From Polaromonas sp. (GTDB lineage Bacteria > Pseudomonadota > Gammaproteobacteria > Burkholderiales > Burkholderiaceae_C), in the NCBI GenBank assembly GCA_038902795.1, contig JBCKNJ010000001.1, positions 24,412 to 88,411 on the forward strand: a stretch of 64,000 nt of DNA. Direction: 5' to 3'. Positions 6,582-41,726 of the stretch are shown here, one piece after another. The stretch's first letter is position 1. The number at the start of each line of letters is the position of its first letter. The position numbers were made by a program, and so were the translations under genes. Below the pieces are notes generated by a model, which saw only the letters and a list, made by a program, of their open reading frames with translations, searched no databases and was not told where the DNA came from.

Positions 6582-6717
6582 TGCGGGTCGTCCCCAAGAG
6601 GCGCGAGGCCTGAGGGTTCTGTCGCATTAAGCGAATTTCCCAAAATTGACCCACTACCTGTAGCGTCTCAACCTTGCGAATACGCTATCCCTGGCGTGTC
6701 GCGAAAACAAAAAATAC

Positions 6718-6818
6718 GATTATTGGGGTCAGACACCAATTTCGCTGCGGTGCGACGCACCGCCCCCTGCGGGGCGAGCCGAAGGCTCAGCGAATTTGGG
6801 CTCTGACCCCAAAAACCG
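6718..6818. repeat. Palindromic GGGGTCAGA...TCTGACCCC element, family C (mirror 43177..43277)
   Basis: Core 6725..6810 folds into a long hairpin; close match to the copy at 11508..11610 in opposite orientation. Confidence 0.85.
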
Positions 6819-6824
6819 CCGTTG

Positions 6825-8162
6825 TTATGCGCCAGATTTCTTGTCGAGATTTTTCTGCTTGAGTTCATGGAGCTTCTCAGCAATCCTGATTTCCAGGCCC
6901 CGGTTAACCGGCCGATAAAACGTGGGTGCCTCCATACCTTGCGGAAAGTAGTTTTCACCGGCGGCAAAGCCACCCTCTTCGTTATGGGCGTAGCGGTAGT
7001 CCTTGCCGTAGTCGAGCGTCTTCATCAGCTTGGTAGGGGCGTTGCGCAGGTGCAGCGGTACTGGCCGTGTGCCGTCATTTTTGATAAACGCTTTGGCTTC
7101 GTTAAAGGCCTTGTAAAGCGCATTGGACTTGGGCGCGACCGCAAGGTAGACCACGCACTGTGCCAGCGCCAGTTCGCCCTCGGGTGAGCCGAGCCGCTCG
7201 TACACCTCGGCCGCATCGAGTGCCATGCGCAACGCGCGCGGGTCGGCCAGGCCAATGTCTTCACTGGCCATGCGTATCAAGCGGCGCGCCATGTATTTGG
7301 GCTCGGCACCGCCGTCGAGCATTCGCATGAACCAGTACAGCGCCGCATCCGGGTCAGAGCCACGCACGGATTTATGCAGGGCTGAAATGGTGTCGTAGAA
7401 AACTTCGCCTGCCTTGTCGTAGCGGCGCATACGTTCGCCCAGTACCTTGAGCAGCCAAGCATCAGTGACTTCAGTCACTAGCGTGCCGGATTTCTCATTG
7501 CCTGCGGCAACACCCAGAGATTCGAGCGTGTTGAGCAGGCGCCGTGCATCGCCATCGGCATAGGCAACAAGGCGCTCAACGGCCTCTGGCGCTATGCTTT
7601 CAATAGCTTGCAGCGACCGTCTTTCAAGCGCCACAGCCACTATTTTCTTTAACTCGTTTAGTTGCAGCGGTTGCAATACATAAACTGTGGCGCGCGACAG
7701 CAAGGCCGAATTGACTTCAAACGAAGGGTTTTCGGTTGTGGCGCCAATGAAGGTGAGTAGCCCGCTTTCGACATGCGGCAAAAACGCATCCTGCTGGCTT
7801 TTGTTGAAGCGGTGTACCTCGTCAACAAACACGATGGTGCGCTTGCCCGTGCCGACATCAAAACCATCGCCACCTTGAGCCGCCCCACGCCAGATACTGG
7901 CTTGCTCCACCGCCTCGCGGATTTCCTTGATGCCGCCCAGCACTGCCGAGATGGTGATGAAGTGCGCATCAAAACTGCTGGCCATCAGGCGGGCGATCGT
8001 GGTTTTGCCAACGCCGGGTGGCCCCCACAAGATGCAGCTGTGCGGCTGGCCGGACTCGAATGCAATGCGTAGCGGCATGCCTTCACCCAGCAAATGTTGC
8101 TGGCCGATCACCTCGCCTAAAGTTTGCGGGCGTAAGCGTTCTGCGAGGGGAATGGCAGCCAT
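6825..8162 (-). CDS. rarA: Replication-associated recombination protein A (MgsA/RarA AAA+ ATPase)
   Basis: PLAERLRP, GPPGVGKTT, FVDEVHRFNKSQQD, ISALHKSVRGSD, ASEDIGLAD; downstream of ftsK-lolA. Confidence 0.96.
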   Translation of the reverse strand: MAAIPLAERLRPQTLGEVIGQQHLLGEGMPLRIAFESGQPHSCILWGPPGVGKTTIARLMASSFDAHFITISAVLGGIKEIREAVEQASIWRGAAQGGDGFDVGTGKRTIVFVDEVHRFNKSQQDAFLPHVESGLLTFIGATTENPSFEVNSALLSRATVYVLQPLQLNELKKIVAVALERRSLQAIESIAPEAVERLVAYADGDARRLLNTLESLGVAAGNEKSGTLVTEVTDAWLLKVLGERMRRYDKAGEVFYDTISALHKSVRGSDPDAALYWFMRMLDGGAEPKYMARRLIRMASEDIGLADPRALRMALDAAEVYERLGSPEGELALAQCVVYLAVAPKSNALYKAFNEAKAFIKNDGTRPVPLHLRNAPTKLMKTLDYGKDYRYAHNEEGGFAAGENYFPQGMEAPTFYRPVNRGLEIRIAEKLHELKQKNLDKKSGA

Positions 8163-8168
8163 TAGTAG

Positions 8169-8267
8169 TCCGTTTCTACATCATTTCTAGATTAGGCGCG
8201 AAGCCGCAGGCAGTGCTGTAGCACGACAAGGCGAAGCAACAACATATAGGAATGATTTAGAAATGGA
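8169..8267. repeat. Palindromic intergenic element, family B (mirror 41728..41826)
   Basis: Arms TCCGTTTCTACATCAT / ATGATTTAGAAATGGA around core AGGCGCGAAGCCGCAGGCAGTGCTGTAGCACGACAAGGCGAAGCAAC shared with 12772 and 13444 copies. Confidence 0.82.
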
Positions 8268-8268
8268 A

Positions 8269-9081
8269 TTACTGCCGAATCACGTCACTGCCCACGGGCG
8301 GCTTGAATTGAAAACTGGCGGGGGCTAGCGTGGGGTTGACCTCAAACTGGTTGAAGGTCATCACAGAGCGCTGGCCAAAGCTGTCAAGGATTTCAAGTGC
8401 TGCCAGCTCGCTACCCTTGTCAGTTACTTTAAAACCCACGCTGATGTTTTGCAACTGCCCGTCTTTGGTTTTTGGTGTGGCCTGAACCCATTGCAAGCCG
8501 GTTTTTGCATCCGCCTTCTCAGCCTTCTCAGTTTTCTCAGGCAGGGACGCAAGATTGAAATCAGCCTGCAAGCCCTTGAGGTCAGCCGCAGCAGCAATCA
8601 CGGCGGCTGGCGTGCCGTTCAAAACCTGCGCCAACTTGCGCGAGGTGGTCTGGTTTAAGTCCGCGTCGTACAGCCACAGCGTTTGCCCGTCAGAAACAAT
8701 GGTTTGTTCAAACGGTTTTTTGTACACAAACTTGAATCGATTGGGGCGCAAAAATTCAAACGTACCGCTGGAGGTTTTGCTTTTTACCGCTTGCCCCTCT
8801 TTGGCCGGGCTGGTAACGACCTGGGTGAACACGGCGCGGCCTGATTTGGTGTTTTTGACAAAGTTTTCGAGGTTTTGAAGGCCATTTTGAGGTGCATTTA
8901 GGCCTGCAGGAGGGTTTTTGGGGTCAGAGTCCAAATTCATCGTGCCCTTGGCACGCCCTTCGGGTGCGATGCTTTGCAGCGTAATGAAATTGGCGTCTGA
9001 CCCCAATAACCCTCCTGAAATAATAGCAACTGAACTCGCTAAAACAAGTTTTAGCAAACGCTTAAAAAGCATATTCGTCAT
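8269..9081 (-). CDS. lolA: Outer-membrane lipoprotein carrier protein with in-frame repeat insertion near the N-terminus
   Basis: SSGTFEFLRPNRFKFVY, IVSDGQTLWLYDADLNQ, LEILDSFGQRS, FQFKPP; ftsK-lolA-rarA synteny; start may be 9072. Confidence 0.92.
   Translation of the reverse strand: MTNMLFKRLLKLVLASSVAIISGGLLGSDANFITLQSIAPEGRAKGTMNLDSDPKNPPAGLNAPQNGLQNLENFVKNTKSGRAVFTQVVTSPAKEGQAVKSKTSSGTFEFLRPNRFKFVYKKPFEQTIVSDGQTLWLYDADLNQTTSRKLAQVLNGTPAAVIAAAADLKGLQADFNLASLPEKTEKAEKADAKTGLQWVQATPKTKDGQLQNISVGFKVTDKGSELAALEILDSFGQRSVMTFNQFEVNPTLAPASFQFKPPVGSDVIRQ
8907..9017. repeat. Family C palindromic element inside lolA coding sequence (mirror 40978..41088)
   Basis: CAGGAGGGTTTTTGGGGTCAGA...TCTGACCCCAATAACCCTCCTG, 111 bp = 37 codons, no stop in the lolA frame. 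Confidence 0.88.
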
Positions 9082-9115
9082 AAATGTAGTGTGATGCGGC
9101 GTGTGGCCCTAGTCG

Positions 9116-11470
9116 TCATTCAGCTCGAGCAGGCACCAGAATGTCGCGCTGGCCGCTGCCTGACATGGCGCTTATCAGGCCGGCTTTTTCCATTTCTTCC
9201 AGCATGCGGGCCGAGCGGTTGTAGCCGATCTTGAGGTGACGCTGCACCAGTGAAATCGAAGCCTTACGGTTTTTCAGGACAATCTCGACCGCCTGGTCGT
9301 ACATCGGGTCTTTCTCATCGCCCGCACCACCTGATACGCTGAGGTCACCACCCCAGTCACCCCACTCAGCATCGACGCTACCGCCTTCAAGCACGCCGTC
9401 AATGTAATTGGGCTCGCCCTGGGACTTGAGGTAAGCCACCACGCGATGCACTTCGTCGTCGCTCACAAAAGCACCGTGTACCCGAATCGGAAAGCCCGTG
9501 CCGCTGGGCATGTAGAGCATGTCGCCCATGCCGAGCAGTGCCTCTGCGCCCATCTGGTCGAGGATGGTGCGGCTGTCGATTTTGCTGGAGACCTGGAATG
9601 AAATCCGCGTCGGAATGTTGGCCTTGATAAGACCGGTAATCACATCGACGCTGGGCCGCTGCGTGGCCAGCACCAGATGGATGCCGGCAGCCCTGGCTTT
9701 GTGCGCCAGGCGGGCTATCAGTACTTCAATTTTTTTACCCACCACCATCATCAGGTCGGCCAGCTCATCAATCACCACCACGATGTAGGGCAGGCGCTCC
9801 AACGGTTCGGGCTGCTCGGGCGTGAGGCTGAAAGGGTTGTAGATGAATTCACCTTTGGCCTTGGCAGCGTCAATCTTGACGTTGTAGCCCGCCAGGTTGC
9901 GCACGCCCAGCTTGCTCATCAGCTTGTAGCGCTTTTCCATCTCGGCAATGCACCAGTTCAGGCCGTTAGCGGCTTGCCGCATGTCGGTCACAACCGGGCA
10001 CAGCAAATGCGGAATGCCCTCATAGACACTCATCTCCAGCATCTTCGGGTCTATCAGCAACAGGCGTACATCACGCGCATCGGCCTTGTAAAGCAGGCTA
10101 AGTATCATCGCGTTGATGCCGACCGACTTGCCTGACCCGGTCGTGCCGGCCACCAAGCAGTGCGGCATCTTCGCGAGGTCGGCCACCACCGGCGCGCCGC
10201 TGATGTCCTTGCCTAGGCCGATGGTCAGCATGGACTTGGCTTCGTTGTAAACCTGTGAGCCCAGGATTTCGCTGAGCTTGATGGACTGGCGCTTGGCGTT
10301 GGGCAACTCCAGCGCCATGTAGTTTTTGCCGGGAATGGTTTCGATCACGCGAATCGACACCAGGCTCAGGGCGCGCGCCAGGTCCTTGGCCAGGCTGACG
10401 ATCTGCGAACCCTTCACGCCAACGGCAGGCTCGATTTCATAACGGGTAATGACAGGGCCGGGCGCTGCCGCCACGACGCGCACGTCAACGCCAAAGTCTT
10501 TCAGCTTTTTCTCGATTAGCCGCGATGTCATCTCCAGCGTCTCGGGGGCCACGCTCTCCTGCTTGAGCAGCGCGCCGTCGAGCAGGTCAACCTGCGGCAG
10601 CTTGGAGTCTGGCATTTCACTGAACAGCGGTTTTTGCCGTTCTTTGGCCACGCGATCGCTTTTGGGAACGTCAACCAGCGCGGGCTCAATCAACATCGGT
10701 TGCGGGTGCTGCTCTTCGATTTCAATGCGCTCGTCAATCAGGGTTGCTTCACGCTCGCGGGCTGCCAGTTTGCCGAGCGCCAGGTCTTGGGCGATCTCGC
10801 GTTTTTCGCGCCGTGAATCAATCAGGTTGGCTATCCATTCGCCAACCCGCTGGGATGTGTGCGCCCATGAAAAGCCAAACACGCTTGAGACGGCAATCAC
10901 GCCCAGGGCAATCAACACCAGGCCCGACCCCGCAAAGCCCAGCCATTTCACGCTGCTGCTGCCGACTAGATAGCCCAGCGCGCCCCCGGCAGCATCGGGC
11001 AGCCGGGATTCAAAACGGTAGAGGCGCGACCATTCAAGCGCACAGCTGGCCGCCAGCAATAGCAGCAGGCTCAGCCAAAACTTAATACGGCTTGAATGCA
11101 GAGGTGTGGCGGTTGCCAAGGTGTCTCCACGCAGCCAGTGGGCCAGTGATGCTAGCCACACCCGTGTGCCCGCCGCCAGCATCCACCAGACGGAGAACCC
11201 GAGGAAAAAATAACTCGCATCAGCCAGCCAGGCACCCAGTCGCCCGCCCCAATTGCGAGTTGCCCCTGGCAATAAACCCGCAGCCTGCGCGATGCCAGAG
11301 GTTGACCAGGCGGCATCCTGCTGCGAATAGCTGACCAGCGCAAGCAGCCAGAAAACCAGCCCAAGCAGGCCAAGAATCAGCCCGACTTCGTGGGCAAAGC
11401 GCTTGACACCACCCGGTACATCGGTGGCTTGGGAATGTCGGGCGCTAAGGGTGTCGAGTGAGTAAGTCAT
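9116..11470 (-). CDS. ftsK: DNA translocase FtsK
   Basis: N-terminal TM segments, [41 protein letters not shown], gamma domain [15 protein letters not shown]. Confidence 0.97.
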
Positions 11471-11507: not shown

Positions 11508-11610
11508 AGAGTTATTGGGGTCAGAGTCCAAATTCGCTGAGCCTTTGGCTCGCCCGCAGGGTGCGGTGCGATGCACCGCAGCGAAATTGGCGTCTGACCC
11601 CAATAACTCT
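11508..11610. repeat. Family C palindromic element between divergent ftsK and trxB (mirror 38385..38487)
   Basis: AGAGTTATTGGGGTCAGA...TCTGACCCCAATAACTCT. Confidence 0.85.
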
Positions 11611-17589: not shown

Positions 17590-17677
17590 GGGGTCAGGTC
17601 TTGCAATCAAGCAGCAAGCAGATCGAAATGCCGAGATCGAGCGGACTGAGGGATGTGTGACTGCAAGACCTGCCCCC
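17590..17677. repeat. GGGGTCAGG...CCTG(A/C)CCCC element Y copy 1 (mirror 32318..32405)
   Basis: GGGGTCAGGTCTTGCAATCA...TGACTGCAAGACCTGCCCCC; one mismatch seen versus 18354..18441. Confidence 0.85.
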
Positions 17678-17886
17678 ACTTGCACTCATGCCCGTTGCGG
17701 ACTTTCGAAGTCGACGGAACTGGTTTACACTCTCGGCGACTGTCTGAGCGCAGCCGCAACGCAACGTCTCTTGCTTGGGCGACTATCGGCCCAACAGCGA
17801 TCTTGTCAACGAAGTCCAATTGCGCAAGGGCTATTGTCCGAAAAACAGTCGTTCCGAGGATGTCAACTTAATAGAGGAGAACGTCA

Positions 17887-18201
17887 ATGAAGTACATGAT
17901 TAGCTGGTTTGAACGCCCGCACGGTTCGGCTACGGAGTACGAGAATGCCCAGAAACGGATACTTGAAGTGTTCAGTCAATGGAAGCCGCCCGAGAATTTC
18001 AAGATCGAGTTGTTCGTAGTGCGAGTGGGCGAGTGGGGTGGGTACATGTTGGTGGACTGCGACGATCCGTTGGCCGTTCACAAGGCCTGCTCGACCCACG
18101 CTACTTTTGAATTCCAGGTGCGAACTGTGATTGCCGTCGAGGACGCTGTCCGGGTCGAACTCGAAGCGATTGCTTGGCGCGATGGACTGAAACGCAACTG
18201 A
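17887..18201 (+). CDS. Small protein, probably DUF3303 family
   Basis: GAGGAG RBS; MKYMISW...GEWGGYMLVDCDD pattern recalled for DUF3303; followed by a terminator. Confidence 0.72.
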   Translation: MKYMISWFERPHGSATEYENAQKRILEVFSQWKPPENFKIELFVVRVGEWGGYMLVDCDDPLAVHKACSTHATFEFQVRTVIAVEDAVRVELEAIAWRDGLKRN

Positions 18202-18274
18202 CATCCGAGAGGACCACATCGCATTCACCTCGTGTGAACCGGCGACACTATCGTTGCAGCATGCGGAGATCAAG

Positions 18275-18304
18275 AAACGGCACTCAGTTTGAGTGCCGTT
18301 TTTT
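18275..18304 (+). terminator. Intrinsic terminator after the DUF3303-like gene
   Basis: AAACGGCACTCA-GTT-TGAGTGCCGTTTTTT. Confidence 0.85.
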
Positions 18305-18353
18305 GTTTCATTTTTTTTGGTGCCTTCCCTCCTCCCTTGCTCTCAGGGTCACT

Positions 18354-18441
18354 GGGGTCAGGTCTTGCAATCAAGCAGCAAGCAGATCGAAATGCCGAGA
18401 TCGAGCGGACTGAGGGATGTGTGACTGCAAGACCTGACCCC
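18354..18441. repeat. Element Y copy 2 (mirror 31554..31641)
   Basis: Direct repeat of 17590..17677. Confidence 0.85.
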
Positions 18442-18487
18442 ACTTGACAGAGGTAGGGCGATTGAATCAAATCCCTCATAATGCAAA

Positions 18488-31252: not shown

Positions 31253-31793
31253 AGATCAGATTCTTTCACAAATCAATAACCGGGAAATGGGTCGGTGAGC
31301 ACAGCTGGAATGACAACTACGCCAATGAACACCGCGACTGAAGAAGCGCAGGTAATCTTTGAAGTGTGCGTTCGTAAGTGTACTTGCTGGACGCCTAACA
31401 ATCAGCGTTTATCCGCCGCGCCGTAAAGCCAGCACAAAGCAAAGACGTCAATCGCGGCAGATAAACCATGTTGGACTGAACCGCCTGTGCTGCGGTCGTG
31501 TTGCGGTTTTGCATTATGAGGGATTTGATTCAATCGCCCTACCTCTGTCAAGTGGGGTCAGGTCTTGCAGTCACACATCCCTCAGTCCGCTCGATCTCGG
31601 CATTTCGATCTGCTTGCTGCTTGATTGCAAGACCTGACCCCAGTGACCCTGAGAGCAAGGGAGGAGGGAAGGCACCAAAAAAAATGAAACAAAAAACGGC
31701 ACTCAAACTGAGTGCCGTTTCTTGATCTCCGCATGCTGCAACGATAGTGTCGCCGGTTCACACGAGGTGAATGCGATGTGGTCCTCTCGGATG

Positions 31794-32108
31794 TCAGTTG
31801 CGTTTCAGTCCATCGCGCCAAGCAATCGCTTCGAGTTCGACCCGGACAGCGTCCTCGACGGCAATCACAGTTCGCACCTGGAATTCAAAAGTAGCGTGGG
31901 TCGAGCAGGCCTTGTGAACGGCCAACGGATCGTCGCAGTCCACCAACATGTACCCACCCCACTCGCCCACTCGCACTACGAACAACTCGATCTTGAAATT
32001 CTCGGGCGGCTTCCATTGACTGAACACTTCAAGTATCCGTTTCTGGGCATTCTCGTACTCCGTAGCCGAACCGTGCGGGCGTTCAAACCAGCTAATCATG
32101 TACTTCAT
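31794..32108 (-). CDS. DUF3303-like protein (mirror copy)
   Basis: Identical protein to 17887..18201. Confidence 0.72.
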   Translation of the reverse strand: MKYMISWFERPHGSATEYENAQKRILEVFSQWKPPENFKIELFVVRVGEWGGYMLVDCDDPLAVHKACSTHATFEFQVRTVIAVEDAVRVELEAIAWRDGLKRN

Positions 32109-32428
32109 TGACGTTCTCCTCTATTAAGTTGACATCCTCGGAACGACTGTTTTTCGGACAATAGCCCTTGCGCAATTGGACTTCGTTGACAAGATCGCTG
32201 TTGGGCCGATAGTCGCCCAAGCAAGAGACGTTGCGTTGCGGCTGCGCTCAGACAGTCGCCGAGAGTGTAAACCAGTTCCGTCGACTTCGAAAGTCCGCAA
32301 CGGGCATGAGTGCAAGTGGGGGCAGGTCTTGCAGTCACACATCCCTCAGTCCGCTCGATCTCGGCATTTCGATCTGCTTGCTGCTTGATTGCAAGACCTG
32401 ACCCCGTGCTTTTTGCGGCCCGTTGATG

Positions 32429-40913: not shown

Positions 40914-41726
40914 ATGACGAATATGCTTTTTAAGCGTTTGCTAAAACTTGTTTTAGCGAGTTCAGTTGCTATTATTTCAGGAGGGTTATTGGGGTCAGAC
41001 GCCAATTTCATTACGCTGCAAAGCATCGCACCCGAAGGGCGTGCCAAGGGCACGATGAATTTGGACTCTGACCCCAAAAACCCTCCTGCAGGCCTAAATG
41101 CACCTCAAAATGGCCTTCAAAACCTCGAAAACTTTGTCAAAAACACCAAATCAGGCCGCGCCGTGTTCACCCAGGTCGTTACCAGCCCGGCCAAAGAGGG
41201 GCAAGCGGTAAAAAGCAAAACCTCCAGCGGTACGTTTGAATTTTTGCGCCCCAATCGATTCAAGTTTGTGTACAAAAAACCGTTTGAACAAACCATTGTT
41301 TCTGACGGGCAAACGCTGTGGCTGTACGACGCGGACTTAAACCAGACCACCTCGCGCAAGTTGGCGCAGGTTTTGAACGGCACGCCAGCCGCCGTGATTG
41401 CTGCTGCGGCTGACCTCAAGGGCTTGCAGGCTGATTTCAATCTTGCGTCCCTGCCTGAGAAAACTGAGAAGGCTGAGAAGGCGGATGCAAAAACCGGCTT
41501 GCAATGGGTTCAGGCCACACCAAAAACCAAAGACGGGCAGTTGCAAAACATCAGCGTGGGTTTTAAAGTAACTGACAAGGGTAGCGAGCTGGCAGCACTT
41601 GAAATCCTTGACAGCTTTGGCCAGCGCTCTGTGATGACCTTCAACCAGTTTGAGGTCAACCCCACGCTAGCCCCCGCCAGTTTTCAATTCAAGCCGCCCG
41701 TGGGCAGTGACGTGATTCGGCAGTAA
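40914..41726 (+). CDS. lolA: LolA with repeat insertion (mirror copy)
   Basis: Identical protein to 8269..9081. Confidence 0.92.
   Translation: MTNMLFKRLLKLVLASSVAIISGGLLGSDANFITLQSIAPEGRAKGTMNLDSDPKNPPAGLNAPQNGLQNLENFVKNTKSGRAVFTQVVTSPAKEGQAVKSKTSSGTFEFLRPNRFKFVYKKPFEQTIVSDGQTLWLYDADLNQTTSRKLAQVLNGTPAAVIAAAADLKGLQADFNLASLPEKTEKAEKADAKTGLQWVQATPKTKDGQLQNISVGFKVTDKGSELAALEILDSFGQRSVMTFNQFEVNPTLAPASFQFKPPVGSDVIRQ

Follow-up and report, generated by a model that had tools for sequence, protein, structure and literature searches.

An in-frame palindromic repeat in Polaromonas lolA probably replaced an older repeat hairpin together with the predicted signal peptidase I site

The 64,000-nt stretch of Polaromonas DNA analyzed here, referred to below as the window, includes a gene for the lipoprotein chaperone LolA in which a 107-nt palindromic repeat is translated between the hydrophobic region of the signal peptide and the mature domain. 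We consider it fairly probable that this repeat, moved by a Y1 transposase, replaced an older hairpin located within the signal codons of lolA, removing the predicted signal peptidase I site while the reading frame was kept. The relevant features of the window are the following:

8269 to 9081, minus strand: lolA ORF, 270 amino acids, starting at the ATG at 9081 (or 9072) and stop-free
9016 to 9081, minus strand: signal peptide n- and h-regions, M1-S22, the retained part of the ancestral allele, which aligns with L001, P0002, P0012 and others
9016 to 9030, minus strand: left remnant of an older GCTA-N9-TAGC repeat, encoding VAIIS (match of the repeat HMM to the empty allele)
8909 to 9015, minus strand: palindromic inverted-repeat dimer of 107 nt with GGGGWSAS-type ends, translated as G23-P58 and replacing about 29 nt of the empty allele
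8920 to 9004, minus strand: core of the element (85 nt), from whose interior 72 nt are absent in the collapsed alleles of relatives
8892 to 8908, minus strand: right remnant of the older repeat, encoding AGLNA (right limit approximate)
8272 to 8883, minus strand: mature LolA domain, intact (TIGR00547, dN/dS and Foldseek)
9116 to 11470, minus strand: ftsK-like gene directly upstream of lolA, used as a synteny marker (name read from the translation)
6716 to 6816, plus strand: intergenic copy of the same repeat family as the lolA element
11508 to 11610, minus strand: intergenic copy of the same repeat family as the lolA element

The gene product was identified as LolA by two profiles, PF03548 (residues 77-260, 115 bits against a cut-off of 23.6) and TIGR00547 (residues 67-270, 175 bits against a cut-off of 112), and by its predicted fold, for which the best Foldseek match was the solved LolA structure 8orn (TM 0.86 by target length, E 4e-17). 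In the AlphaFold model residues 16-52 have low confidence and the barrel is intact; the repeat-encoded insert is predicted to be unstructured. On the minus strand lolA is found between the ftsK-like gene and a rarA-like gene, both flanking names being read from translations. The most hydrophobic 11-mer of the protein consists of residues 12-22, and because the n- and h-regions align with those of relatives the translation start lies upstream of the element; a start downstream of it, the alternative raised in the earlier note, was not upheld. LolA is assumed to be essential in Polaromonas. A scan of the window for promoters and terminators gave matches at chance level. Between nucleotides 9082 and 9120 there is a 4-nt deletion common to the window's genome (G000) and G141, and the ATG that overlaps the upstream stop is out of the lolA frame, while in L001 and L137 it is in frame. 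Another repeat family is found just 3′ of lolA (8193-8243), and at L137:1430-1540 the repeat downstream of lolA has its centre swapped for a further copy of the element.

The contig that includes the window (G000 contig C1) is a perfect palindrome with arms of 49,278 nt, represented in the window by nucleotides 1-24867 and 25128-49994. This palindrome is almost surely an artefact of amplification or assembly, and therefore the duplicated genes in the window are not real paralogues. An apparent second lolA near 40914-41726, with an element copy near 40980, was rejected as its mirror image. No further lolA was found by tblastn of G000, which is 73% complete; the compared genomes are 60-76% complete, so that a second lolA may have been missed.

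The lolA element extends from nucleotide 9015 to 8909 and has an 85-nt core, GGGGTCAGA..TCTGACCCC. Both arms carry GGGGTCAG, and the ends conform to GGGGWSAS, the motif described for the terminal inverted repeats around TIRYT transposases (PMC3733652, PMC6006769). The element folds as a long hairpin (z −7.0) as stable as which none of 200 shuffled sequences was found. It belongs to an abundant family, with 65 non-duplicate copies in G000 that have a core of 84-86 nt; in 58 of the 87 motif pairs the span is exactly 85 nt, the arrangement of an inverted doublet with conserved spacing. A strict pattern identified 61 copies in G000, 34 in G141, 134 in G142, 63 in G143 and 24 in G061, and its reversed control none. 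The copies at 6718 and 11508 were correctly assigned to the same family in the earlier note, which had also recognized that the element lies in frame and without a stop within lolA; the number of codons occupied is 36 and not the 37 originally counted. The open frame alone is unremarkable, because 39% of the six reading frames are open across the 65 copies. The lolA copy is one nucleotide apart from five other genomic copies over an 89-nt core, and 100% identical over 106 nt to one copy in G141. There was no Rfam match within 8100-9200. The tetranucleotide GTAG (or GTGG) at the foot of the hairpin, a canonical feature of REP sequences (PMC8266576), is absent from the ends of the element, which thus does not have the character of a canonical REP or REPIN, and comparison by eye with five published BRE sequences revealed no similarity that would place it among the BRE.

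A gene matching PF01797, located beside a gltB-like gene, is flanked on both sides by near-identical element-like inverted repeats in three of five genomes (G015, G017 and G018), and on one side only in G061 and in G000, where the contig end cuts the gene (75 bits against a cut-off of 80 for NF047646). By this association, a resident Y1 (RAYT/TIRYT) transposase is the likely mobilizer of the element. A second Y1 transposase gene (G000:C2:27508-28407, L116) is accompanied by inverted repeats of a different family with GGGGTCAGGTCTTG ends, dimers of which are also found in the window at 17590-18446 and 31549-32405.

Of the 80 genome loci compared, the closest is L001 of G061, which has a mature domain 93% identical to that of the window and carries an empty lolA allele that reads VAIISVAGHAQEQGATGLN, although the repeat family is present elsewhere in that genome. 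Alignment with this and other LolA sequences, as had been proposed, defined the empty site. Ten codons of L001 correspond to 36 codons of the window, so that about 29 nt were exchanged for 107 nt, a net gain of 78 nt or 26 codons; the replaced nucleotides encode the ancestral predicted cleavage region VAGHA/QEQG. The ancestral loss could be about 29 or 38 nt, because the other close empty alleles (P0002, P0121 and sequencing run X3) are 9 nt longer than L001. The insert was absent from all 70 loci whose N-terminus was compared, of the 80 lolA loci of relatives. The refuting condition of the earlier note, the same peptide in relatives that lack the repeat family, does not hold: the nearest empty-site relative has the repeat family and not the peptide. 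The view of an in-frame element stands, while that of a simple insertion has to be given up in favor of a replacement.

The segment lost from lolA is the stem-loop of the older GCTA-N9-TAGC repeat. This motif, first suspected from the degenerate remnant that abuts the element, is real: it has 92 matches, while spacers of 7, 8, 10 and 11 give 5, 7, 10 and 6, respectively. An HMM built from 50 genomic copies matches the empty lolA allele (E 3.1e-10), which bears out the idea of a repeat nested within a repeat within a gene, and it also matches 26 of 75 lolA 5′ regions of relatives belonging to several Comamonadaceae genera, as compared with none of 150 control stretches. The otherwise rare codon ATA accounts for 37 of 126 Ile codons in the lolA 5′ regions and for 3 of 187 in the mature part. 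We infer that the older repeat moved into lolA and not the reverse. It may be related to the ATAGCT(N)22CAAAAG motif pair of PMC5217627.

Replacement of host DNA, rather than insertion with duplication, is the rule for this element. Sixty sites from G141-G143 were compared with G000, of which 44 lacked an ortholog on both sides and 6 had diverged flanks; the 10 that could be scored included 7 empty, 2 shared and 1 collapsed, and the losses of host DNA at the empty sites were 22, 25, 43, 50, 54, 56 and 233 nt. A comparison with G061 started from 21 sites (6 without an ortholog on both sides, 1 skipped) and left 14 that could be aligned, 6 of them with a net gain of just 62-80 nt and 1 shared but inverted. 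At the latter (G000:C45:7761-7866 against L119 of G061) the copy is found in opposite orientations in the two genomes. Remnants of four other repeat families, recognized by patterns picked after the data had been viewed, adjoin 15 of the 65 copies, as compared with 57 tags in 3000 random sites. The size of the element, about 100 nt, its terminal inverted repeats, its high copy number and its polymorphic sites could also describe a classical MITE mobilized by a transposase of the cut-and-paste type, the missing host bases being later, unrelated deletions. We give this explanation hardly any credence, because neither lolA nor any of the 7 scorable empty sites has a target-site duplication and all of them have lost host DNA, the ends match the repeats around a Y1 transposase, and another Y1 gene is matched by a second repeat family.

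Cleavage sites were scored with the Gram-negative matrix from the supplement of PMC2638155 (positions −10 to +5, approximated background), which gives a crude score; a matrix trained on LolA homologs, being circular, was used for the register only. The empty L001 allele scored 9.4 bits at AGHA/QE, and 109 partly redundant empty homologs had a median of 10.4 bits and a 5th percentile of 6.4. In the full allele the n- and h-regions are present and the best cleavage site reached 4.3 bits, a value lower than that of any of the 109 empty homologs and matched by 9 of 434 windows of the mature domain; the site in the ancestral register, GLLG/SD, scored 4.0. The two collapsed alleles described below scored 9.9 bits at GLLA/SD (G141, above 46 of the 109 empty homologs) and 13.7 bits at GLLA/AD (L137, with Ala, above 92 of the 109), both in the ancestral register. 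In Gram-negative peptides the commonest residue is Leu at −2, Ala at both −1 and +1, and Asp at +2, while Leu at −3 (5.9%) is uncommon and Gly occurs at −1 in 2.9% (PMC2638155). SDA/N was rejected as the main site of the full allele, as Asp at −2 was found in 0% of 307 Gram-negative peptides. From the scores of 9.4, 4.3, 9.9 and 13.7 bits, the full copy is therefore predicted to spoil the site and its remnant to rebuild one in the old register.

The full allele might alternatively not be cleaved at all, LolA being then tethered to the inner membrane with the repeat peptide as a flexible spacer. This would agree with the low best score relative to empty homologs and mature-domain windows, with the Asp at −2 that disfavors SDA/N and with an insert predicted to be unstructured, but LolA is described as a soluble shuttle between the membranes and an uncleaved, tethered LolB is reported to be toxic in E. 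coli (PMC13733947), and Gly at −1 and Leu at −3 are found in real substrates. A tethered LolA is in our opinion decidedly improbable.

Among the best 120 of 7146 matches in a protein search, together with 19 cluster members, there was one other full-insert protein, P0001; also among the matches listed was a five-member cluster, P0003, that reads AIISGGLLAADPKNPPAVLN. The DNA of the P0003 type, represented by L137, retains the two element ends and the two junctions but not 72 nt of the interior, and it can be considered a collapsed allele with a Ser to Ala change (GGLLA/ADPKNPP). The allele of G141, AIISGGLLASDPKNPPAGLN, is the collapsed intermediate (GGLLA/SDPKNPP), with junctions identical to those of the window. 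There is a series with the same junctions that consists of empty, full, collapsed, and collapsed with Ser to Ala alleles, in which the Ser to Ala change is a single event. The junctions are shared by three lineages with both flanks (G000, G141 and L137) and by one with the right flank only (G142). In the freshwater run X3 a 270-nt contig identical to L137 across the site (depth 36.6) is found beside an empty allele (depth 96.2), X3 and L137 being perhaps not independent samples. G142 has a full element on the lolA mature domain with the right junction as in the window; on the left the flank comes from another locus, and the ftsK-like gene of this genome stops at a contig end, the left junction being probably a misjoin at the repeat.

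Among 204 genomes of the genus the left junction was found in G000 and G141 only; in three others that matched it with one mismatch the match proved to be to unrelated copies of the older repeat and was discarded. In JGI metagenome contigs the exact left junction of the full-length allele was not found, and a protein-level search with the right junction returned a single match, a collapsed allele. No independent record of the complete full allele with both flanks was obtained from the JGI contigs, the contigs of sequencing runs or the 204 genomes, and no RNA data set was among the runs listed for the sequence. The full allele could thus be thought of as a damaged gene at an evolutionary dead end, or as an artefact of assembly at the repeat, and it is true that the contig is itself an artefactual palindrome, that a misjoin probably occurred at the same repeat in G142, and that no run or contig outside G000 bridges both full-length junctions. 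Nevertheless the synteny is correct on either side, independent collapsed alleles share the exact two junctions and both ends of the element, and the mature domain of G000 is intact with dN/dS of 0.06-0.16 to relatives, for which reasons we hold damage or artefact to be quite improbable. The earlier suggestion of a damaged allele is supported inasmuch as the full allele has a poor cleavage score, but the persistence of the junction across diverged lineages and the purifying selection on the mature domain speak against it.

Collapse is a general decay route of the element, seen as 88 matches in five genomes. No type of collapse is more frequent in this subfamily than the junction that gives Ala (18 other matches as compared with 3 of the alternative, among the 88), so its presence in lolA is no evidence of selection. 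The mature domains of the four insertion alleles differ by dS of 0.14-0.26 with dN/dS of 0.06-0.16, and the repeat-derived junction therefore looks long-lived; differences between the flanks begin 5-15 nt from the junctions. This argues for an old, tolerated event, within the limits set by recombination among these genomes. In trees of the mature domain, both protein and nucleotide, the insertion alleles were not grouped and the weak support did not settle their order. Note that lolA of G140, which was uninformative for the allele series, has a different 5′ end, resembling that of more distant Polaromonas, which suggests recombinational swapping of the signal peptide; in G140:C14:25287-28263 (L170, L172) about 2.3 kb with three unrelated ORFs are found between the ftsK-like gene and lolA.

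Copies of the element are crossed by 18 other long ORFs, 7 of which have Pfam matches, and in 4 of the 18 the frame is the same as in lolA, so that it is translated in frame in several unrelated genes. These are tpiA, rsmA and a gene for an SbmA/BacA-like ABC protein, in which it is C-terminal, and a MoCF_biosynth gene, in which it is internal; all except the SbmA/BacA-like gene were compared with relatives. In tpiA (G000:C21:9979-10833, L246) the element replaced a stop-containing hairpin of the same older repeat and adds 36 residues; with G140, G141 and G143 among the genomes compared to G000, three genomes carry it in full and one in part, and four lack it. In the MoCF_biosynth gene, read as CinA-like (G000:C45:8745-9788, L244), it took the place of a BRE-like repeat; the loop has no repeat in G140-G143, the BRE-like repeat in G061, the BRE-like repeat plus half an element in G178, and the full element in G000. 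It extends the C-terminus of rsmA (G000:C32:16845-17765, L247) in G000 only among 9 genomes, and that of the SbmA/BacA-like protein (G000:C22:1614-3584, L249). From one genome to another the tpiA copies have 0-1 differences in 103 nt, as compared with a divergence of 4% in their flanks; this homogeneity suggests that resident copies are rewritten, and it is compatible with either order of the full and collapsed stages at lolA. The rsmA region is 99% identical in three genomes as compared with 93-96% elsewhere, and these genomes appear to recombine.

The order of the alleles could accordingly be the reverse of the one we favor. The full copy in G000 has no private mutation despite its diverged flanks, and the 4-nt upstream deletion is shared with the collapsed G141 and not with the collapsed L137, so re-expansion fits these two facts as well as persistence does. 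The ancestor of G000 would then have been collapsed and well cleaved, its short hairpin having been recently refilled by gene conversion or transposase-mediated replacement, and the window allele would be a recent, mildly deleterious relapse. In line with such a history, the G000 copy is identical to a family variant found elsewhere, although the mature domain of G000 differs by a dS of 0.14-0.17 from those of the collapsed alleles. Both collapsed alleles have precisely the same hybrid junction, which is rare elsewhere (3 of the 87 other matches) and so suggests that the collapse occurred once. There is also one other site at which G142 has a full copy and G000 a collapsed one, and at one of the shared sites the copy is inverted. 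Near-consensus full copies are however shared across genomes at tpiA too, so that homogeneity needs no collapsed stage, the apparent recombination in the rsmA region blurs the tree argument, and a full copy is present in G142 as well. We regard the reversed order as unlikely.

Under the favored reading, that of a replacement that preceded the collapse, a non-autonomous palindromic repeat, likely mobilized by a Y1 (RAYT/TIRYT) transposase, would have replaced the hairpin of the older repeat in lolA, removing the predicted signal peptidase I site and keeping the frame, and this would have happened once, in the common ancestor of the insertion-bearing lineages. The product of the full allele would still be exported by virtue of its intact n- and h-regions. 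Its cleavage would be inefficient and probably occur after G27, so that an unstructured tail encoded by the repeat would be left on the protein. The usual decay of the element, an in-frame loss of 72 nt, would put Ala at −1 in the ancestral register and thereby rebuild from repeat DNA a site of normal strength, which the later Ser to Ala change at +1 may have improved further. Full copies at fixed sites would stay close to the consensus of the family, being rewritten from copies elsewhere. A broader reading, which we advance tentatively, is that the export signal of LolA, an essential chaperone, was built twice from selfish palindromes, initially from the old Comamonadaceae repeat, which would provide the h/c-region of the LolA signal peptide throughout the family, and then from a younger Y1-mobilized replacer that targets other hairpins and whose collapsed remnant, with a selected substitution, serves as the signal peptidase site. 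If this is true, the natural alleles would preserve each stage in turn, from insertion through damage and collapse to compensation.

The closest known relatives of the element are the TIR repeats of TIRtrons (Y1 subclass 2.1, RAYT group 1), with which it shares GGGGWSAS ends and the organization as inverted dimers (PMC3733652, PMC6006769), as well as a moderately abundant genomic family and the same ends around a Y1 gene; target replacement, nesting, a collapse series and an intragenic copy in a signal peptide are found here and not in the available part of their description. Rickettsia palindromic elements and intragenic REPs are likewise palindromes in frame in housekeeping genes, N- and C-termini included (PMC3733652, PMC10969869, PMC3184786). 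Those are described as additions in loops, linkers or termini that are presumed neutral, whereas the lolA element takes away a predicted processing site, for which its own remnant is predicted to provide a substitute. With REPINs it has in common an inverted doublet with a spacer as the mobile unit, the RAYT association, and decay by deletion between the two arms (PMC3116915), but REPINs are described in that source as extragenic, while the lolA element is intragenic and lacks the GTAG-tagged hairpin at its ends. BRE are also repeats of about 90 nt, found in Polaromonas and its kin and sometimes wholly intragenic (PMC3110155); their sequence is different, and a BRE-like repeat was the target of the element in the CinA-like gene. 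Signal-peptide turnover in Enterobacterales shares the remodelling by indels and point changes toward Ala-x-Ala (PMC5952966). Transposable elements were sought near changed N-termini in that survey and none was found, in contrast to lolA, where a repeat is the cause of the change. Our literature search, with few subscription journals covered, found no repeat that forms a bacterial signal peptidase site; in the literature searched, in-frame palindromes and decay by interior deletion are known, and a predicted cleavage site built from a repeat would be new.

Gene callers cut P0122 and P0129 at the repeat, masking the signal peptide. Comparison of filled with empty sites shows that the element spreads by replacing host hairpins, which is a clue to the movement of RAYT-associated repeats. 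In-frame palindromes are usually seen as tolerated passengers, while the lolA repeat removes a predicted site that its decay product is predicted to replace. As the four natural alleles can be compared in one export assay, the origin of functional protein sequence from repeats becomes directly testable.
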